A stretch of 58,687 nucleotides of DNA from a virus (taxonomy: Duplodnaviria; Heunggongvirae; Uroviricota; Caudoviricetes): the IMG/VR virus record IMGVR_UViG_2834277561_000001, positions 1-58,687 of that record; one strand, 5' to 3'. The notes under the pieces are model-generated. The model saw only the letters and a program-made list of their open reading frames with translations. It did no database searches and was not told where the DNA came from. Below are positions 14,659 through 41,052 of the stretch, in pieces; the stretch's first letter is position 1; the number at the start of each line of letters is the position of its first letter. Position numbers and translations under genes: made by a program.

Positions 14659-17600
14659 TTATCCTTCACATGAAATTGAGAACATAATAAGAACTCCGGC
14701 AGTTTGAGGATAGAAATATCCATTAATTCTACCAGGATTATCTTCTCCACCATCAACACCATATTGCCAAGTCCCAACATTTTGATCAACATTGGCAGAT
14801 CTGGTAGGATATGCTTCATATGTTTCAGGTGTTGAAATTTTTGTACGTCTACGGGCAATATCGCTTGTCATGAATGGTATAGTAGAGTCAGTCTCAATAG
14901 AATATGGATCTCCTGAAACTGACGGATCAAGTTCATAAACAGAAGGAATATAGAAATAACATTCTGATGTAGATGTTGTCTTTGCTTTATCAGCATTATT
15001 AGCAATTACATTTACTTTCTTGATAAGAGATTTCCATAAAGGAGGAATTGCTTTTGGCAATCTGGTATTAAGCCAGGTATTAAGAGGTGACTTGCTCCAT
15101 CCTCCAGAAACATTTCCATAAGAATGGTTTGTACTTAACAGATTTTTACCAATAAATGTAATATTTGCTCTCTTAGTTGCATTATCAGATAGATAATACT
15201 CTTTATACTTTGCAACCATCATAGGAATAGTTTCATGTACCCAAGCGGCAATTTCTTTACATTGATCCTCGCCAAGATCTGCGTACCACAATTTAGCCCA
15301 ATGAATCTTACCTTTTGCATATTTCTCATACTCGCCATCATCAGCCTTAGAGCATCCAAATACAAGAGTAGATGGAATTACAGGAATTCTGATAGCAGCA
15401 AGAGTAGTAGTTGATACTTCATTTCCAGTTAAATTCGAACAGTATACATAAGCTTGTTCACTTCCGGCTTTATGTCGGATAACAACAAGTTCTCTATCTG
15501 CAATACCAGCTGGATTTGTACTTTTAGTTCCCCAGTTAAGGTTTACATTTGAGCTATACCATAATCTGAATCCATTTGAACCATTTGATTGAAAACATTG
15601 TGCGAGAGTAGCACCAGAAGTATTTCCATCATTAAATTCAAAATCAATCGCAAATGTAAAATCACGGTCTTTATCCATAATAGTAGTATTAGTATCAATG
15701 TAATTAGTACCATCGAATTCAGTTGTGTCAGATATAAATTCTTTACTTTCTACATCGTCATAGTCATAATCAACACCAAGTTTGAAATTTAATATATCTC
15801 CAGATGTTGTTTTTGATTGTTCAAGATTCATCTTCATCAGAGTATATAATTCAACTTCTGATAAGTTTTCTAAATCTTTTCCGTCAAAATATCCGTCAGT
15901 ATATGTACAAGAATCAAATACGGTATAGATCTTCTTATCTCCTGTAACAAGACCAGATTTATCCCATTCTTTAAATAAGTAATATTTAAACGCAGATTCT
16001 TCGGCTGTATATTTAGGAATATCTCCATCATATTCAATAGTTGAACCATATGGGCTAGTAGAAGACTGTAATACAGTTTCTGCTGCATTTTTATTTGCTT
16101 TCAAAATATATTGGACTGTATAGCTTCTAACAGAAGGTTCATATACAGCAGTTATAGTTCTGTCTGCAAACACTTTTGTAAATGCTGCATCCCAATGCTT
16201 AAATGTAAAATCATTCTCGACTGTACTTGGAATAGTAGGAGTCTTGATTGGATTTACAGCTCTTGTCAGAGGATCTTCGCCATCAGCACCAATATCTACA
16301 TACTGAATATCAAGAACTGTGTGTGTCTCATCAGCATTGACACAGGTAATTTTAAACTGTGTAATAAGAGAATCATAAGTAATCTCAAGTCCAGTCCAGA
16401 TACCCTTTTGTGATTTATCACCAACGTATTCTAAAAGTTCTTTATTACGAATAACAGGAACATGAATTGTTCCAGTAAGTATTGAATGTTCTGTGTTAAA
16501 TTCATTTTCATCTTTTCCGGAAAGTTTTGCCAATACCTTAAGAATATCAGTGTTTTCCAGGTTCCAATTAATACCTGTTACGGTTACAGTTCTTAAAGAA
16601 TTGATTGCTTTCTTGATAATACTTAAGCTATCAATATTAGAATTTCGACAAATAAATGTCTCAAGATTCTCATATGAAGGAACTACTAAATCAGTAAGAT
16701 TTTGTAAATCTCTAAATGCAAGAGTATTGATTGTAGATGGGAGATAGGCATGTGTAATTTTACCATGAGTAGCAAAAGATACAGAAGAAATGATAGTGCC
16801 AGATGCATTTAATTTCAGAAGATTTTCACATGCAGAAAGATTAATAGAACCTGTAAGGTTTGGACAATTCTGAACGTCAAGTTCTTCAAGAAGAGTATTG
16901 TTACCCATGTTCAGATTTGTTAAGAAGGAGTTTTGATATCCTTCTTTATCACTACCAATAATAAGAGTTTTCAATTTAGAAGCTTTTGAAAAATCGTTAT
17001 CATGAATATAACAAGCTGATAAATCATTTAACGCCTGGATTCTAGATGCACAATAAATTAATACTGCGGTATCATCCATATTTGTGAGAGTAGTAGTGAT
17101 TTCATATTCCTGTCCAGCTTTAGCACGTACCTGAGTAGGATTTGCTGAGTTACCATATAATACGGAGATATACATATCAGAATATGGAATGATTTTTAAT
17201 GTATAATCTGGTTTTACAACAGCTTGTTTAGGAGTATTACATCTGAACATAATCTGGTCAGATTTTACATCTGTGTGAACGAATTTGGTTCCCATATAAG
17301 CATGTTGATCACGTTCCCACTGTGCAAGATGATATATTCCACGACCATTCATCATTTCCTGTAAGAATCTTACAGTGCCTGCTCTATAAGTTCTGAAATA
17401 TAATCTATCATAATGAAGTCTCCAGAGTTCTTCTGGGAATTGATTCTGCCAAGCCTTATATTCATTAATCAGATGGGTATCAGACCAACAGTTAGCATCT
17501 ACAGACTGATACATATTTCTTAATTGTGGTTGCATGAGATCACGGATCCTACACCACAATGTTGATTCAGCAGCATTAAATACATAGCCAGAAGAAGGCT

Positions 17601-18713
17601 TACCATCTTCTTTATAATCAGTATCTTCTTTTCCATATGGAAAAACTAATTCACCACTGTTATTAATTCCAAGCTGAGTATCCATATCATATGCCCAGAA
17701 ATCAAATCTATATCCATTATGAATTGCAGCAGCATTATCATCTATTGTATAATATTGAGCTTTATCTCCAGCTTCAGCAGCTTCAGATGTACTCATGTAA
17801 TGTTTAGCCCAATGAGGAAAAACATTCTTTGCTCGGTTGTCAATCATGCTATATCTAAGAGTAACTAAATAGAAGTATAATGTTGTTTCTTTGATGACCC
17901 AATCTCCTAAATGAGCAACGAAATCTTCGTCAGAAGAAGTAACTATAAATTCATAGAAATCACGCCATATTTGACGGTTATTTGTACGAATCTTTTCCTT
18001 CTCTTCATCTGTAGAAATAGCAGAACCATCTTTAGAGTCACCACAACAATCGTATCTAAATTCAAATGATCCGTCCCAATTATTGTAAAGATTGTCATAA
18101 GCAGTATTTCCTGCTTTCCATTCTGCTTTTGTAATTGGATATTTTGGTGTTCCGTCTGGATTTGTTACTCCTGTCTGGAATGCAGAGTTTGGAAGAGTAT
18201 TATCTGAAATCTCAATACAAAATTCCTTCATATCATCTGGATCATAAGCTCTTGTAACATCTGTCTTTTTGGAATCACCCATATTGCCTAAACTATAGAA
18301 ATGCCAATCAGTATCTTGGAATTCTCTATGAGTAGATACGTCTGGATCGTTCTCTTTAAGGAAGATTACACAGTTTACGAACTCCATAGAGTTCTTTACT
18401 TTTGGATCTCTTTTAGTTCCTGGACTTGTATATGGAATAAAATCATTAAATCTCTTTTGTCCTAATGCGTTTGTAGCCATATTAGAACTTGCTACATTCA
18501 CCTTGAAATTCCACCAGTTATTAGGCACTGAATTTCTCGTAAGAGATATTTTACCTGTTCCATCAGTAGTTTTACTTCCGTCTCCAAGTTCAAGAATCGT
18601 TTTATAATTAGGATCTAATTTGATGTTACTATTAACCTGATGCTCACCATCAAAACAACAGATGACATCGATATTTCTTGCAGCAAAACCATATTCATTA
18701 GATGTTGTACCTT
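14659..18713 (-). CDS. Giant tail protein, exon 2 (CotH-kinase-like domain, leucine-rich repeats, C-terminal lectin/DUF6273-like region)
   Basis: Frame is open from 18711 (GTTSNEYGFAARN...) into the 1289-aa ORF; DNRAKN and YDMDT.LG.NNSG motifs; LEELDVQNCPNL LRRs. Confidence 0.82.
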
Positions 18714-19618
18714 CAAATTTTGTTATCCTATAGGCTTTTTATCCTATAGTTCTTATACTTGCATAATATAAAATACGTTAAATTAAGCTATTTCCCTAAA
18801 CCATTGTCTGCCATATGCAGTTTTGCGTTTTCCATTAAGGACACAGCTAATAGAGGCAGAAGCAGAACTTTTTCCATTAGTAACCGCTCTTGTGGCTTCG
18901 CGAATACCAGAAAAATGCTATATATTTCCATCTTTATCTATTGAATAGACAGGGTACCTACGTTTCTGTGCCACACGCTCTTTGTGTGTTCCATAATTAT
19001 TGTTATATTTGGCAGTACACCATTCAAGATTTTCAACACAATTGTTTGTTTTATCTTCATCTTTATGATTTACTTCTGGGAAATTGTTAGGATTAGGAAG
19101 AAATGCTTTTGCGACTAATCTATGAACAGCTAAATGAACACGATTTTCTCTTTTTCTTCCATCTAAAGAAATGTCAATTTGAAGATAACCTTTTGTACAA
19201 GGATAGGGTTTCATGATTTTCCCATTCATTTTATCTACTTTATAGCTTTTTATTCTTCCTAAATTACTTACTTCATATCCAAGATAGCCATCTATTGGCT
19301 TCCATATTTCGTCCATATATTCACCTACTTTCATTTTTATAATAAAAAAGACTTAATATGCAAAATTAAGTCTATTAAACGTATTTTATTTATTTTGTAT
19401 AAGTTCAGCATATCTTTTTACCATAACTACAATATGTAGTTTTAGGTATTGCGAACTCGTGGATGCATTATATTCTCATAATAGAGTGTCAGCATCTATG
19501 CGTTGCATGTGACTATACTTTTAAATATAGCCTTCCATTCGGATTAGCATTTCAGCCTTCCCGATTTCTTTCGCAATTCTTATATATATGTTTCCATATA
19601 TAAGGGGCAAGGATGTTC
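18714..19618 (-). mobile_element. Group I intron (IA-like), 905 nt, HNH gene in the P9 region
   Basis: IGS CCTTGCCCC (19604-19612) complementary to the ligated junction GGGGC|AAGG; terminal G at 18714; P3 TTGCGAA/TTCGCAA, P4 TCGG/CCGA, P6 GGCTATA/TATAGTC, P7 GCATA/TATGC, P8 TACC/GGTA; removal restores HAGQGTTS in frame. Confidence 0.9.
18783..19334 (-). pseudogene. NUMOD4-HNH homing endonuclease with an in-frame TAG before its C-terminal NUMOD1-like DNA-binding domain
   Basis: EIWKPI.GY..YEVSNLGRIKS, VHRLVAKAF.PNP, VNHKDEDKTNN.V.NLEW; after TAG (18918-18920) the frame continues HFSGIREATR...ISCVLNGKRKTAYGRQW to TAA at 18783. Confidence 0.82.
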
Positions 19619-22600
19619 GCCCCGCGTGATAACAATTAGTAAACTTCCAGTTATCAAGAACTGGATCACCATTTGTATAAATACACTGCATTGATGTATC
19701 TTTTACAAAATCCTTTTTATCATTGGTAAAGTGTGGTGCTTCAATTTTAATAATTCTCAAATCCGGACATGCTTTTGCAACTGAATCAGGTGTAAGAGAA
19801 TTGTTTTCATCATAGATCTGATTTCGTTCATAACGGGCAATCATATCGTCAGAGTCTCTTGCATCAGCTATAAAGTTACTCAAAATATCCGTATCAGTCA
19901 GAGAAGCGGAGTAAGCTTTCATTCTATAAACATGAACATCACAATCATCAGAACCAATAGTAATCGGAACAGGAGTGTACTGATATAATCTATGAACGTC
20001 ATTATATATCATTGGTCTTCCGCCAACACCATCTTCATATGTCATTACAATAGATGTCGCCCCTTCAGTTTTGGTGTCGAGAGCATTGATATTAAATTCG
20101 TATTCAATGATATCTTCTTCACTGTATGGGAAATACAAGCTGCTCGTAGAGGAATAAATGTTTGCTTCATGCACATTCATCTCAAGACCAACTTTATCAT
20201 CCATAGCCGGAATACAAGATAAGAATGTAGTAGAAGCGTTACGTACATTTGTAGTTTTAAATACAATCTTAAATTCGGAACCCGTCTGTTTTGGATCGGT
20301 TCCAAAAAGATTATAATTAATTTTAGCTCTTGTACCTGCTTTTACACAGAAGTACTGATTACCATCAGAGTCAATCTGATATCCACCGTTTGACCAGTCA
20401 AAATTATCAGATACTGTCATTGCAATATTTGTATGTGTTTTATCTTTCCAAAGTCTATTTTCATCACTATTTGAATAGCCTGTTGGATTAAAATCAAATT
20501 CAAGATTTGCAGTAACTGGTTCAACATCAATATCCAATTTTTCGATATTTGCTTTTAAGATTTTAGTGACCTTTCGGCAGGAGATAGTTAAATCATGATT
20601 TCCAACATCAGATGATTTATAACTCCATGTTTGTACGGTACGTTTAACAGATAATGTAGATACTGTATTTCCATCTACAGCTAATTTTACTGTTGCAGGA
20701 TTATGGTCTGGATCATATACAACATAAGGAATATTTGTCGCATGATACTGCTGGGTTGTAAATTCTTGCATTGAACAACCAATAATAGGAGTCCTGTCAT
20801 CCGGATTGACCCATATAATATCTTTAATAATTGTCTCTGACTGAATGTCCTGGTTATTTACAGTAGCAGTCATATATACTTTAAGCAGGTGCGCTCCGTG
20901 AGATTGTTTTGTAAGAACATAGGATAACTGTCTACCAGAAGCAGATGTATTTACAGAATCTAACTCATTGCCATCAAGAATAAAGTGTACTGTTTTATTA
21001 ATATTACCGTATGGAGTATATCTGAATGAGACTTCATCAGAATAGAAGAGAGTATCATCGAAAGTGCTTTCAAGTTTAAAATCAACAATTGTAATTGTCC
21101 AAGTTTTTGTTGAAAGAGTACCAACGCTGTCAGTAATTGATAATCTGATAGAGTTTGTACCGGCTTTGAGAAATTCAGTAAGATCAATACTGTTTTTGCC
21201 CTGACCAACTGTAAGAGTAGAAACCGTTGTATTGTCTATTTTCCAAACCGCTGTACCAATACCTGTTGAATCACCAACATTATCAACTGATGACCAGGTA
21301 TATTCAATAACAGCTTTATTACCCAATAAGAAAATGGCATCAGCTGGAGTAATACGTTCAATTGTCATTGTAGAAGTAGTAGTTCCACCACCGCCTCCAC
21401 CTTGAATTGTAAATATTTTAATGGTTTCTCCATTTTCTTTCCAGTAGAAAATATTATCAGTATAATCGACATCATATTTAGTGGATGCCGGATTTTCTTC
21501 TAATTTTTTAACCCTTCCTTCCAGAGTATCAAAATTCGTTCCTAAACTATCAACAGCTTCTTTATTTCCGTCAACAGTCTGTTTCATATTTGCTACTGAG
21601 TTAGTAGCTTGCGACACATCTTCTTTAATTTGTGGAATCTCAGTTTTTTTTACTTCATTCAAAGAAGATGTTAAGTCGGTAATTTTCTGTTCATCCTCGG
21701 TTTGATGCTCTTGAATAGACTGAATACTATTGTTAATAGGAGTAATGTTGGCAGTTACCCATTCAGTAGAAGGATTAATAGAACCAATATTAACATCAAA
21801 CATTTTAGCAGAACCATTCATAAATGTAAGTTGTCCAGCTCCATCAACAGCAGTGTATGTAACAGACAGGTTTGCCAGCCCATTAATAGTAACAGAGGAT
21901 AACTCATCTTTTCCAGCTGCCTTACTTGTATCTTTTAATGTCAACTTCCCTGATTTATTATCATATTCCGCTTTAAGGTGTGATAAACTGCTAATAGAAT
22001 TAATAGCTGTATTAATTGGTTTAAGACTATCTGAAATTTTAGTATCTGTCTGAGTCTTTGTGTAATAATTTTTCAATGATGTTGTGTTGATAAAATTATC
22101 GTTAACCTTTGAAATTACATCGCTAGCAATTGAGTCAACATTGATCTTAGCAGCAGAATTAGCAGCTTCCTGTGCATATGATTGCGCATTATTTACATAT
22201 TCAATAATTCTTGCCTCAAATGATGTCATCCATCCTCTATCAGACACTTCCACAAAATCGTCCTGGTCAATGCCTTGCATCACATTGATTTTTCCATTTG
22301 GTCGAGTAGTCCAAGCATATTTCAAATCGCCGACCTGCCCAACTACACGGATTTCAAAAATATAATCTCCTGGTTTTATTGTAACTGACTCGTCAATAAG
22401 CCATCCAAATCTGATATAAGAACTATTTCTTTTTACATTAATTACATTATATTCGTGTGGAGTGCCTCCTGTAAGTTTGTCACTGCAACGAATAGAAATA
22501 GTCATTTCTCTGGCGGATAAATCAATACCGTCGTAATACCTTGGCATTTGGAATGGAATATATTGACTATTCTTTTCCTGTGTAATATTGATCTGACTCG

Positions 22601-22793
22601 AATCCATTGTGATATTTTTATTTGTATCAACCATGGAATATTTATCATCTGTATATTGACTATATTGAGTATAACCCTCAACGGATTCGTAACCATCATC
22701 AACATATACGGCAAAGGCATCTTCGGAAGCAAGTGTCATTACTTCCGAATTCATTGTCGATAAAATTTTCTTTTTAGAATCTTTAAATGACAT
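19619..22793 (-). CDS. Giant tail protein, exon 1 (BppU-like N-terminus, coiled coil, beta-rich/LamG-like region)
   Basis: 1058 codons plus one base up to the 5' splice site; SQYIPF.MPRYYDGIDL; the last 32 residues of the track ORF (RTSLPL...) are intron sequence. Confidence 0.82.
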
Positions 22794-36986: not shown

Positions 36987-37067
36987 CTGCGAAAAATATT
37001 TTTTGGATAATATTGTATACAGAAAAAAACTTATATGCTAAAATAAAAAGAAAAAGGATGTGATTAC

Positions 37068-37220
37068 ATGACGGCGGTAGTATTAGTAGTCCTTATATTA
37101 ATTTTTGGAACTTTAGCAGAAGTAGGAAAATCAGGTTCTACAGATTTAGGTAGTATGTTACTCGTTATTGGAGTACCAGTTGGTATCTTTTTAATTCTTG
37201 CTTTACTCGGCGTAAGATAA
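37068..37220 (+). CDS. 50-aa two-TM membrane protein (intron cargo; absent from the ORF track)
   Basis: AAAGGATGTG SD, ATG, MTAVVLVVLILIFGTLAEVGKSGSTDLGSMLLVIGVPVGIFLILALLGVR*; TGcTAAAAT extended -10 upstream. Confidence 0.65.
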   Translation: MTAVVLVVLILIFGTLAEVGKSGSTDLGSMLLVIGVPVGIFLILALLGVR

Positions 37221-37262
37221 GACTGATGTCCTACAAAATGTAGTCATATAAAGGAGATATAT

Positions 37263-37841
37263 ATGAATATAAATGAAAAATGCCCAAACTGTAGACAAAA
37301 AGGGCATCTCAGCTATCTTAACATATATGGGCAAACTATTATAAAATGTATGACATGTGGCTCATTATACAATCAAGATGGTAGTAAATATGTTTTTCCA
37401 AAAACTTTCTGTTATATTTGCCCGAAATGTGGAAACGATTATGTCTACCCTGAGAATTATGCCCACACTTGTAAAAAATGTGGTTATCCGAATATGATTA
37501 AAACAGAATTCACAGGAGATGAACATACGAAACTTGCAATGGACAACGACGAAAAGTTTGAGAAATTTTTGTCCCATCTTCGAGAAAAATATGTTGTTGA
37601 TAATCCGGATTTAGATAAAGAACTCTATCAAGAAACATTGGATAAGGAATTCCAAGACTCTTTGTTGAATTCTGTAGAAGAAGAGGAGTATGAAGAACCA
37701 AAGATACATTGCCCGAAATGTAACTCGACTAATATTACAACTGGTCAGCGCGGGTATTCATTCTGGACTGGATTTCTCGGTTCCGGCAAAACAATGAACC
37801 GTTGTGGTAATTGCGGCTATAAATGGACACCTGGAAAATAA
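37263..37841 (+). CDS. Multi zinc-ribbon protein (intron cargo)
   Basis: AAGGAG SD; three CxxC...CxxC pairs; C-terminal CPKC.STNI...RGYS..TG..GS.K..NRC.NCGYKW seen in prophage morons. Confidence 0.8.
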
Positions 37842-38144
37842 TAAATAGTAATAGAGAAGGAGAGTAGTGATACTCTCCTTAAATATATAACGAGAGCATG
37901 ACAAAACCAACTCTCGTTTCAATGGTGCTTATAAAGTTGTCTTCGTGGCAAAACCTCTATTCAACCTAATACTTATAAATTCTAGCAAAACTATTTTTAT
38001 AAGTATAAGCATCACTATCGGAAATCGTTCACGATAATTTTTTATATATGGAGTGCCCGAATCTGCCGATATGATCCCCTCATCAAGTGAACCTATTTTA
38101 AATGTATAATACCAGGAGAGTTACAACTCTCTCTTTTTTTATAC

Positions 38145-38172
38145 AAAAAAAGAACAGCCCATGAAGCTGTTC
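38145..38172 (-). terminator. Minus-strand intrinsic terminator inside the intron
   Basis: GAACAGC-TTCATGG-GCTGTTC-TTTTTTT; a plus-strand terminator lies back-to-back at 38115-38140. Confidence 0.75.
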
Positions 38173-38400
38173 CAAAAAACTCAACCGTTTTTTGCTAGTA
38201 TAAGCAAAATATTCGAATTTATATTATTTCATAACAATATCCAGACAAATATCTCATCAATATACTAGAAATCGTTGTGAGCCTATAAAAATGCGTCCAT
38301 TTTCAAGCTCAAAAAAGAATACTATTGATATTGAGAAATATCAAACACTACGCAGTGACAGGACACAAACCGTGTATACGACGGGATAATATTTCTACTT
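38145..38400 (-). ncRNA. Candidate ~250-nt structured RNA downstream of the PemK-like gene (possible RNA antitoxin)
   Basis: Promoter TTGACA-17-TATATT (38435-38407) inside the last codons of the toxin gene; no ORF; several hairpins; ends at a terminator. Confidence 0.45.
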
Positions 38401-39204
38401 ATGTTTAATATATCCTTTTCCCCTATTATTGTCAACATGTTTCTTTTTATTTTTCGGTTCTGATTTTAGTCTTTGTTGTTCTAATATGTTTATTCTGAAT
38501 TTTAAATCATGAACCTGTTTCTCAAGTTCTTTATTTCTTTTTTTATATTCATCATTGTTCTTTATAAGAGATTGATGTCTTTGATGAATAGTAGGATACA
38601 TGATTTGAAATACCTGCATTTGTATATCAGACAAAACAGTATCTGAAATTGTGGTAATCTCTTTATCTATTCTAGCGCGTGAAATAAATTTTGCGTCATT
38701 GATAAGTAAAACACAATCTTTAGGGAATCCATCACTCATCAATCCTTGCCTGTATTTTTTATTCCCGTTTTTATTATTTGTAGGATGATAACTTTGTGGA
38801 AAAATATCATCACCACTTCGAATAGGAACTACTAAAAATTTATTGTCTTTAACACCAATGCATAATCCATGGTGATAATATCCCAACTCTCCGGCAAATG
38901 TATTTCCATAATCAATATAGTATGTATGTCCTATTTTTGGAATAATTTGTTTTTTATTATCATCGTAAGATACTGTCGTATGACATTTTCTCATCCAATT
39001 CATATCACTGAATAGTATAGATGCTGCGTCATACGCATTTTGTCTTTTTAACCCCTGAATGTAATTATGCATATACTGAACAGCTGCAAGCATAATTACA
39101 GAATATTTGATTGACTTATTTGTTTTATTCTTTTCGATATGCTCTGTATATCTCTTTATGTTTGTGACATCACTCCAAATCATATTCTCATGATTCATTT
39201 GCAT
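38395..39204 (-). CDS. PemK/MazF-fold endoribonuclease toxin-like protein with C-terminal coiled coil (intron cargo)
   Basis: IGHTYYIDYG..F.GELGYYHHGLCI...LVVPI.S and ..IS..RI pattern match MazF/PemK; own promoter TTGACG-17-CATAAT (39269-39241). Confidence 0.68.
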   Translation of the reverse strand: MQMNHENMIWSDVTNIKRYTEHIEKNKTNKSIKYSVIMLAAVQYMHNYIQGLKRQNAYDAASILFSDMNWMRKCHTTVSYDDNKKQIIPKIGHTYYIDYGNTFAGELGYYHHGLCIGVKDNKFLVVPIRSGDDIFPQSYHPTNNKNGNKKYRQGLMSDGFPKDCVLLINDAKFISRARIDKEITTISDTVLSDIQMQVFQIMYPTIHQRHQSLIKNNDEYKKRNKELEKQVHDLKFRINILEQQRLKSEPKNKKKHVDNNRGKGYIKHK

Positions 39205-39370
39205 ATTTTAGTTCACCATCCAATATTGTGTATTAATATTATTATGTGACAAAATATGACAAACGTCAATTCAGAACGTATGTATGGAAATAAGATAATC
39301 TAATGATTTTTGTTGACAAAACATTAATTTCATCGTATGTTGAGTATAATATATTGAAGGAGATATTAGT

Positions 39371-39634
39371 ATGAACAAAAAAGAAATTAGCAGTAATATA
39401 TCACTTGTCTATCGTGATATAGAAAATACATATTCTGATTCAAAATCTATTTTGGCTGATATTATGAAACATGCAAATGACAATTTTGAAGAAATTGAAA
39501 ATATATATCGTCTTGTTGCAATGATATCTTTTTACAAAAATAATTACAGTCAGAGAGGCGGCGAAATATTATTTGAAGAATTCTCCAAAAATATTCCGGA
39601 ATTTAGACGTATCTATAAAGTTTTTGCTTCATAA
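39371..39634 (+). CDS. Hypothetical protein (intron cargo)
   Basis: AAGGAG SD, promoter TTGACA-17-TATGTT (39313-39341), terminator GAGAGC..GCTCTC-T tract at 39664-39687. Confidence 0.7.
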   Translation: MNKKEISSNISLVYRDIENTYSDSKSILADIMKHANDNFEEIENIYRLVAMISFYKNNYSQRGGEILFEEFSKNIPEFRRIYKVFAS

Positions 39635-39703
39635 ATTCATATTTTGAATTAATACTAAATAATGAGAGCTATTTGCTCTCCTTTTTTGTTTGCAAGATTT
39701 ATC

Positions 39704-39732
39704 TTGACAATATGACACATGTGTCATAATAT
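39704..39732 (+). promoter_or_regulatory. Promoter with a perfect 18-bp palindromic operator
   Basis: TTGACA (39704) -17- TAATAT; TATGACACATGTGTCATA at 39711-39728. Confidence 0.75.
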
Positions 39733-39763
39733 ATGACTATAAAGGCATAAAGGAGGAACATAA

Positions 39764-40102
39764 ATGAGTATTAATGTCCAAAATATTGATTTATCTAAAA
39801 TGAAAAAATGGACTCCAGAATCAATTCTAAAAAAGAAACGAATAGAATCTGGTTTTACACAAAAACAAGTTGCCGATATCTTAGGAATATCTTTGCGACA
39901 GTGGCAGAGATATGAAAAAGATGACGATCTGTCATGCGTCACATTTCAAATGGGTGTAAATATTTGTGAACTTCTCAATATTGACGTGTATACTTATGTC
40001 ACTCCATTGAATGATATATTAGAACACAATCTTGCTACTCCTGGTGAAGTAGAAGAAAGTACCAAAAGAGAAATCATAAATAAATTTAAGGGAGAAATGT
40101 GA
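39764..40102 (+). CDS. XRE-family helix-turn-helix regulator (intron cargo)
   Basis: LKKKRIESGFTQKQVADILGISLRQWQRYE; AAGGAGG SD. Confidence 0.88.
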   Translation: MSINVQNIDLSKMKKWTPESILKKKRIESGFTQKQVADILGISLRQWQRYEKDDDLSCVTFQMGVNICELLNIDVYTYVTPLNDILEHNLATPGEVEESTKREIINKFKGEM

Positions 40103-40368
40103 TTGTGAATAATTTTCGATTCCATTATGCAAGGGCAATAATTACAGTTCCAAAAACCGATGATATTGAAATGAACCGTGAAATCAGAAGAAGAATTAAT
40201 CTATTTGAAAAAGACAATAGAATGTATATAGATCTCATGAAATTTTTGCTAGATAACCAAATTCCTGTTAGAGCAATACCTGAAGATTATGCCAATGAAG
40301 ATCAAATAGATTATGTCTCACGACTTAATACTGCATATAAAAACCTAGGATTATTCTATAATTGCTAA
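40099..40368 (+). CDS. Hypothetical protein coupled to the XRE gene (intron cargo)
   Basis: GTGA start/stop overlap, 89 aa. Confidence 0.65.
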   Translation: MIVNNFRFHYARAIITVPKTDDIEMNREIRRRINLFEKDNRMYIDLMKFLLDNQIPVRAIPEDYANEDQIDYVSRLNTAYKNLGLFYNC

Positions 40369-40379
40369 TTATATAATTT

Positions 40380-41052
40380 AGAAGTGGAAGATACTTGTTC
40401 TTCCAAAAAAATATTGTGTTGACTCGCGAACATTACTATAAGCAATGACGAGTAATATAATGCAGAAAATATGTTCTGCTTTCAATTACAACTATTTTTT
40501 CTGCTCATATTTTAATTCTCCGCAGTGGAGATATCCGAAGTTGCGTCGGATTGGTATTCACTCTATATTCGCACATCGCAACCATACCAATTTGCAATGC
40601 TCCAAAAATTGCTGACAGAAGGGTAGTATATAGAAACTATCCCTGAATGATTCGGGCATCTGTCTTCCCTATCGCTAGAGTGCATCTTCGTGATTCCCGA
40701 TGAAACCACGCTTTCGTTACGCTCGTTGAGGTCGGTATCCTTTCTTATTAGAACGAAACCCTACCTGCGGATTACCTCGTGTTTTGAATTATTCCCTTAC
40801 CTCATGCTTTCACATTCGCCACCTATTCCTATTAAGAATAGGTTTGAGATCAAAACCATGTGACGCAGACTTTTGAACTGCGAAGGTTCCCCGTTCCCAC
40901 CATTCATAGTAGGAGAGTAACACATTACTGTTACTCCATATTAGAAAGTCACTATAGAAGTCCTTGCTTTTCAGCTCGTACACGTTACCGTTAAACTTCT
41001 AAGCGGCATAAGTCATTTGAAAAATGCATGGGGCGAATTCCCATGTACTCTT
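40380..41052 (-). ncRNA. Group I ribozyme core and P9 extension of the TMP intron
   Basis: P1, P3 CTTTC/GAAAG, P4 CGG/CCG, long P5 extension, P6 GGT/ACC, P7 GAG/CTC, P8 CGTGGTTTC/GGAATCACG; ORF-free and GC-richer than the flanks. Confidence 0.8.

Follow-up and report, generated by a model that had tools for sequence, protein, structure and literature searches.

The td intron of phage T4 belongs to the IA2 class of group I introns, has a U-G pair at its 5′ splice site, holds the gene for the GIY-YIG endonuclease I-TevI in P6, and interrupts a gene of nucleotide metabolism. Two fungal introns with C-G in place of this U-G pair were reportedly described by Hur and Waring in 1995, who are said to have asked whether the encoded protein was under selection. 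The introns of Twort orf142 and of the Cluster J mycobacteriophages are not known to depart from the canonical U as the last base of the upstream exon (position −1). They lie in virion genes, namely, the tail tube gene orf142 of Twort (PMC11878797) and capsid and tail genes in Cluster J (PMC3706429). The last exon base of group I introns is described as "virtually always a U (or exceptionally a C)" (PMC4227781), and in the Tetrahymena ribozyme, the substitution of C(−1)-G22 for U-G raises P1 undocking ∼80-fold (PMC1891724). Introns in phage tail genes are already known, as is a C at the 5′ splice site as a rare exception.

Here, we analyzed a window of 58,687 nucleotides, positions 1 to 58,687 of a caudoviricete record in IMG/VR (IMGVR_UViG_2834277561_000001), which very probably contains a functional group I intron that is spliced after a C in a tail-module gene; we infer splicing itself. 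Both the td intron and this element are group I introns of phages that contain P7.1/P7.2 and encode a homing endonuclease within a peripheral loop, but this element differs in its host gene (tail), its C-G pair, its HNH open reading frame (ORF) in P9, and its P7 sequence. Compared by description, it shares a virion or tail gene with the Twort and Cluster J introns and the IA type with the Twort intron. The fungal introns of Hur and Waring share with it the C-G pair and a protein-coding gene, and the reason reportedly suggested for them was that the protein needs the C; in contrast to them, the window intron lies in a phage rather than a fungal mitochondrion, belongs to another family, and carries an HNH rather than a LAGLIDADG-type ORF.

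The interrupted gene and its junction

The predicted gene organization is as follows.

14659..18713, minus strand: exon 2, comprising the AA of a Gln codon, 1350 codons, and the stop codon
18714..19618, minus strand: predicted group I intron of 905 nt, starting with G and ending with G18714
19619..22793, minus strand: exon 1 of the tail-region protein gene, comprising 1058 codons and C19619, the first base of the Gln codon

The interrupted gene would encode 2409 residues and is located in the tail region of a 201-kb phage genome, a record classed as a provirus in IMG/VR with a CheckV completeness of 100%. All genes in the tail part of the window are on the minus strand. The upstream neighbors of the split gene encode a tape measure protein (phrog_167) and a Dit-like protein (phrog_33), which identifies the locus as a tail module. 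A preliminary description of this DNA had set this tail gene location against the classic phage introns in nucleotide metabolism genes; the location stands, but in view of the published phage examples, it is not new. The ORF at 22793..19521 (minus strand) reads into a noncoding stretch, and a second open frame spans 18738 to 14659 (minus strand), with its earliest start codon only at 18528. Exon 1 is colinear with residues ∼1 to 1060 of homologs of 2400 to 2440 aa and matches positions 459 to 1084 of phrog_14959, the one PHROG profile that is matched by both gene halves in colinear order. Searched with tblastn against named phages, exon 1 gave weak matches only and exon 2 gave no match.

Excision of the 905 nt joins GGGGC|AAGG and restores the protein sequence ...YHAG-Q-GTTSNEYG.... 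The ligated exons read GCG GGG CAA GGT ACA ACA TCT (A G Q G T T S), with a predicted junction of GCGGGGC|AAGGUACA, likewise given as GCGGGGC|AAGGTACAAC. When the end of exon 1 was used to search for longer proteins, 1746 hits were obtained, and all 120 of those listed (2000 to 2828 aa) read HAGQGTTSNEYG across the junction without a gap. Using the first 400 residues of exon 2 in an exhaustive phmmer search, its residue 1 was found to fall at internal positions ∼750 to 1650 of more than 100 long proteins. At the DNA level, the site is uninterrupted in 75 of the 80 related viral loci, and the other 5 carry the same intron at this position. The product of the nearest empty allele (L239) is 98% identical over exon 1 residues 650 to 1058, and its DNA can be aligned gap-free to 300 nt of the ligated exons, 278 of which are identical (L239:3582-3882). 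The intronless homologs, which had been proposed earlier as a check, are thus colinear at the site at both the protein and DNA levels; the originally proposed span of 18714 to 19618 on the minus strand is confirmed base for base, as is the in-frame restoration of QGTTS. Because the invariant Gln codon can be formed only by C|AA, the junction is fixed to the nucleotide and the last exon base is a C. This base is C and not U since it is the first base of that codon, where a U would create a UAA or UAG stop.

It is very improbable that the gene is truly split, that is, that RNA splicing does not take place and two separate proteins are made on either side of an endonuclease cassette. Gene callers would give two ORFs here, and there are known cases of phage genes whose halves are separated by a free-standing HNH gene, but exon 2 lacks an in-frame ATG, GTG, or TTG for 61 codons (the first in-frame start is at 18528), a stretch that includes the invariant GTTSNEYGFAARNID block. 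The frame of exon 1 stays open for the first 32 codons of the intron, the endonuclease gene is enclosed by a complete, covarying ribozyme core, and the same-site copy in one related locus (L175) is a ribozyme with no ORF, all of which favor an intron over a split gene.

Predicted structure and classification of the ribozyme

The elements of the predicted intron RNA, listed from 5′ to 3′, are as follows.

19617..19623, minus strand: 5′ strand of P1, GGGGC|GA, with the 5′ splice site between 19619 and 19618
19604..19612, minus strand: internal guide sequence CCTTGCCCC (RNA CCUUGCCCC), read from the sequence
19583..19602, minus strand: P2 hairpin with a GAAA tetraloop, predicted with RNAfold; relatives show the same hairpin
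19570..19577, minus strand: 5′ strand of P3, AUUGCGAA, pairing with 19455-19448; compensatory changes in 7/8 pairs
19539..19564, minus strand: P4-P5 arm (UCGGG AA GGC ... GCU AA UCCGA), from covariation; J4/5 and J5/4 adenines conserved
19507..19538, minus strand: P6 (AUG/CAU) and P6a (GGCUAUA/UAUAGUC); 9/10 pairs compensatory
19497..19501, minus strand: 5′ strand of P7, GCAUA, within invariant AACGCAUAG, pairing with 19412-19408 across P3′ (pseudoknot)
19462..19496, minus strand: P7.1/P7.2 insertion (GAUGC ... CUC/GAG ... GAAUAUAAU GCAUC); 6/8 pairs compensatory, with 100% and 90% of cells paired
19448..19455, minus strand: 3′ strand of P3, UUCGCAAU, from covariation
19420..19447, minus strand: P8 hairpin; three outer pairs 91.7% paired, 2 of them compensatory; inner stem read from the sequence
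19408..19419, minus strand: J8/7 (AAAAAGA) and 3′ strand of P7, UAUGC; columns invariant or nearly so
19397..19403, minus strand: 5′ strand of P9, CUUAUAC, complementary to 18758-18752; the P9 loop holds the endonuclease gene
18752..18758, minus strand: 3′ strand of P9, GUAUAAG; P9 covaries across 50 introns
18728..18749, minus strand: terminal hairpin CUAUAGG-AUAAAAAG-CCUAUAG (P9.1-like); loop conserved in the family, 7/7 pairs compensatory across 50 introns
18714..18714, minus strand: last intron base, G (omega G), at the 3′ splice site; ...UUG|AAGG in each of the six same-site copies

The GCCCC portion of the guide pairs with GGGGC of exon 1 (19623-19619) in P1, and its CCUU portion pairs with AAGG of exon 2 (18713-18710) in P10. 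P1 comprises 7 bp (GGGGC|GA with UUGCCCC), including the splice-site pair C19619-G19608, and P10 comprises 4 bp. The preliminary description was accurate on both counts, having reported a guide exactly complementary to GGGGC|AAGG, which is CCTTGCCCC at 19612-19604, and a C-G pair in place of U-G. Helices P3, P4, P5, P6, P6a, P7.1, P7.2, and P8 occur in canonical order, with P7 crossing P3′ as a pseudoknot. As a side observation, the frame of exon 1 extends 32 codons into the intron (19521-19618, minus strand) through P1 to P6, and the loop of P6a supplies the TAA at which it ends; if ribosomes followed this frame into the ribozyme core, they could interfere with its folding.

To evaluate the model by covariation, the helices read from the window sequence were projected onto 20 members of the subfamily of the window intron. 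Among these, 91.4% of cells were paired, compared to 29 to 39% for slid controls, and 29 of 42 pairs showed compensatory changes; the observed values were reached by 0 of 500 shuffles. For P9 and the terminal hairpin, 50 family members were used, yielding 92.4% paired cells and compensatory changes in 12 of 14 pairs. Across both sets, 91 to 92% of cells were paired, whereas slid controls ranged from 25 to 50%. The claim that all core helices can be drawn is thereby backed by covariation in relatives, and every core base that is invariant in the family is kept in the window copy. The five pairs of P7 (GCAUA/UAUGC) are invariant in 20/20 sequences, so covariation cannot speak to P7. This P7, which was originally presented as a variant, is indeed found in the window (19501-19497/19412-19408) but is not peculiar to the window copy, being invariant across the family. 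The P7 region, with A76-U172, a bulged C77, and G78-C171, together with the A-rich, invariant J8/7 and J4/5 and a P7 that itself never varies, agrees in sequence with the predicted site and would fit a guanosine-binding site. The J4/5 and J5/4 adenines A21, A34, and A35 vary little or not at all in the family.

P7.1 and P7.2 are present and covary, and two helices, not three, were identified in the P9 region. The P9 stem closes a GAAA loop in relatives lacking an ORF; in the window, this loop contains the endonuclease gene. Published descriptions of the IA2 class name P7.1/P7.2 and an extended P9 region (PMC4227781), and judged by these features, the element is a phage IA-type (IA2-like) group I intron.

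A search with the Rfam group I model had been proposed at the outset as a check, and it returned nothing: RF00028 had no match in the whole window at the gathering threshold, none in a 1.3-kb slice (18500-19800) even at an E value of ≤10, and no Rfam group I match was obtained in five related loci. As a positive control, RF00028 scored an intron of a different family in phage phiCD211 at 41.7 bits, and it likewise missed an ORF-less member of the window's family in the same phage. Because the model works on the other phiCD211 intron, the negative result here represents a blind spot of the model rather than counterevidence.

Same-site copies, the intron family, and the endonuclease gene

Five of the 80 related loci (L175, L180, L186, L188, and L196) carry the same intron at exactly the window site; in these loci, continuous GQGTTSN is absent and both exons are open. 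All six copies, which are related and therefore do not count as independent events, are preceded by ...GGGC and end with ...UUG|AAGG. In L180, L186, L188, and L196, the guide is CUUGCCCC, which gives C-G as in the window. The L175 copy, 308 nt long and devoid of an ORF, has the guide CUUACCCA and the exon sequence UGGGC, which places an A opposite C(−1) and changes the pair at position −5 from G-C to a compensatory U-A. P3, P4, P5, and P7.1 also differ between the same-site copies by compensatory changes. The tail genes bearing these copies are 66 to 77% identical to that of the window in the flanking 300 nt, whereas the ribozyme cores of L180, L186, and L188 are 86 to 92% identical to that of the window, a difference that fits horizontal homing. 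In a tree built from the core, the window intron clusters with L180 and L186 (99/95), and L085 is the nearest other row; L175 is not firmly placed.

The empty allele L239 carries four synonymous differences from the window (GCU, GGC, CAG, and ACU) within seven bases of the junction, three of which are at positions paired with the guide sequence in the window. These differences could reflect exon-guide coevolution, coconversion, or site variants resistant to the endonuclease. The junction GGGCAAGG is present in 6/6 intron-bearing alleles and 2/75 empty alleles (Fisher's exact test, 8.6e-8), although the alleles are related and their independence is overstated by this value. Together, the same-site copies, the covariation of guide and exon, the compensatory changes, and the L239 differences argue for selection on P1 and P10 and for an intron that is in use.

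The endonuclease gene occupies the P9 loop, as follows.

18918..19316, minus strand: NUMOD4-HNH homing endonuclease ORF, with a probable ATG start at 19316 after AGGUGA and a premature TAG at 18920-18918
18783..18917, minus strand: in-frame remnant of the endonuclease C terminus, 44 codons, aligning with ...HFSGVREA...CLNGKRKTAYGRQWF of the intact L186, L188, and L196 ORFs

The ORF inside the intron (138 codons) matches Pfam NUMOD4 (8e-14) and HNH_3 (3e-8). A single-base nonsense change places TAG in the window where L186, L188, and L196 have GAA or GAG, and these three loci encode uninterrupted HNH proteins of 176 to 177 aa. Judging from this alignment, the window endonuclease gene is recently broken by a GAG-to-TAG change. 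Recoding of TAG was judged unlikely and rejected, as code 11 leaves the long late genes open, a search for tRNA genes in the window found none, and the relatives have Glu. Most of the endonuclease gene is lost in L180 and all of it in L175. Homing endonuclease genes go through a known cycle of invasion, decay, and loss, which the intact, truncated, and lost copies match, and the retention of the ribozyme despite endonuclease decay points to selection for splicing. Separately, a hairpin (AGACUUAAU-UUUGCAU-AUUAAGUCU) followed by a run of U is located in the P9 loop just upstream of the endonuclease start (19349-19373, minus strand); it has the appearance of an intrinsic terminator or of an element that limits endonuclease expression.

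An alternative is that the element is a dead relic, in which the C-G pair or other damage blocks splicing and the tail gene is inactive in a decaying prophage. The nonsense mutation in the endonuclease and the provirus class of the record are what such a relic might show, and C-G weakens P1 docking in Tetrahymena (PMC1891724). Nevertheless, we consider a relic improbable: the exons are still open over 1058 and 1350 codons, all family-invariant core bases are kept, and the record is 100% complete by CheckV. Furthermore, exon and guide sequence covary, and five other phages with the same intron at this site have C at −1, intact exons, and compensatory changes in the ribozyme.

Under the preferred reading of a functional intron, the element would be transcribed with the gene, and its RNA would fold into P1 to P10. 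Guanosine would attack after C19619, which the guide sequence holds in P1, and the freed exon end would then attack after G18714, joining the exons as GGG-CAA-GGU (Gly-Gln-Gly) within the invariant motif. The guide would have kept its G (a Watson-Crick C-G pair) in five of six lineages and changed to A (a wobble-type C-A pair) in one. The intron would have spread by homing via the NUMOD4-HNH endonuclease, whose gene would then have been truncated in the window by GAG-to-TAG and shortened or entirely lost in related copies.

The 5′ 190 nt of the intron are ∼79% identical to noncoding DNA of several unrelated phages, and its last 50 nt are 85 to 98% identical to noncoding DNA in ∼38 phage records, in which the matches interrupt genes annotated as separate coding sequences (CDSs), among them those for tape measure, major tail, and gyrase proteins. 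A signature, AACGCATAG...CACGAG, recovered more than 70 distinct family members from IMG/VR. A P1 hairpin pattern (GGGGYGAANNNNYTTGCCCC) was also tried on viral contigs and discarded, as its 39 hits were all chance GC hairpins. The family model, R1, finds a single copy in the 201-kb genome, which is the window intron; the stretch at 36987-41052 of the window, in the tape measure gene, was matched by neither Rfam nor R1, and any intron there would therefore represent another family. Unannotated family introns (L002 to L005) interrupt the tape measure genes of Clostridium phage phiCD211 and Staphylococcus phage 6ec, the major tail gene of Staphylococcus phage vB-SscS-F1, and the gyrase gene of Yersinia phage phiR1-37. 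They have in common with the window intron the AACGCAUAG...GAAUAUAAU...CCACGAG core, P7 as GCAUA/UAUGC, and the terminal hairpin with its AUAAAAAG loop, and they are 70 to 98% identical to it in the core and terminal blocks. Unlike the window intron, they occupy other genes and sites and have U-G wherever P1 is clear.

Several loci hold two introns. In phiCD211, an unannotated, ORF-less family member (L004:1780-2045) lies directly upstream of the annotated Intron_gpI, and the tape measure gene therefore holds two introns in tandem that belong to different families. In L180, the tail gene contains another intron of the window's family ∼70 codons downstream of the first (L180:3978-4141 and ∼45 nt upstream), after ...NNWFNLKV and with a canonical U-G pair. 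In each of L001, L058, and L079, two family members lie close together.

The C at the 5′ splice site

The U-G splice-site pair, a hallmark of group I introns, is found in P1 of at least 20 family members, based on a manual reading of the hairpins adjoining P2 in RNAfold predictions; the window intron has C19619-G19608 instead. The closest relatives at other sites (L001, L085, and L091) read GGG(G)U|GA...UUGCCC, with a U where the window has the C. The result is a series of C-G in five copies at this site, C-A in one (L175), and U-G in close relatives elsewhere. Because a U would create a stop codon, the exception can persist under codon constraint. Relative to the introns of Hur and Waring, this consequence of a U and the natural C-A variant at the same site are peculiar to the window site.

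The C-G pair might instead signal a misplaced 5′ splice site, with splicing occurring at another, canonical U-G site. U-G is near-universal in group I introns (PMC4227781), and in group B IStrons, the U-G pair is one base off the cut. Here, however, the 5′ strand of P1 contains no U, and the nearest exon U is 11 nt upstream. Only C|AA remakes the Gln codon, whereas a one-base shift of both sites would yield an Arg or Glu codon and give the intron a last base other than G, and relatives with the same guide have their U exactly at the position of the window's C. We therefore regard a misplaced site as extremely improbable and retain splicing after C19619.

Two further family members may also have C at −1, with junctions placed by the hairpin and reading frame only. 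L128:7711-8040, in a tape-measure-like gene, has an apparent C at the last exon position with an A opposite, within an Ala codon (GC|U). L157:3975-4231, in an AAA-ATPase-like gene, has an apparent C with a G opposite.

By analogy with the ∼80-fold increase in undocking in Tetrahymena, the window copy with its C-G pair may splice poorly. A different and rather doubtful possibility is that 5′ splice site choice in this phage intron lineage is independent of the wobble geometry at −1, in which case recognition might rely, for example, on the conserved adjacent G(+1)-U pair or on other P1 contacts. If this were true, C-G, C-A, and U-G would each support full activity, and a widespread group of phage introns that are invisible to Rfam would follow a relaxed form of the U-G rule.

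The locus adds a clear explanation for the C at the coding level, a natural C-G/C-A/U-G series, and a further example of how a widespread phage intron family escapes the standard model. The series would provide a natural test of the contribution of the wobble pair to splicing in vivo. Because RF00028 is blind to the family, the interrupted genes appear in public records as two or three CDSs, as for the tape measure genes of phiCD211 and 6ec, the major tail gene of vB-SscS-F1, and the gyrase A gene of phiR1-37; similarly, the 2409-aa tail-region protein of the window would be called as two proteins. The principle that the need of the protein can account for a C at the splice site was reportedly already proposed in 1995, and the locus therefore refines known biology rather than changing it.
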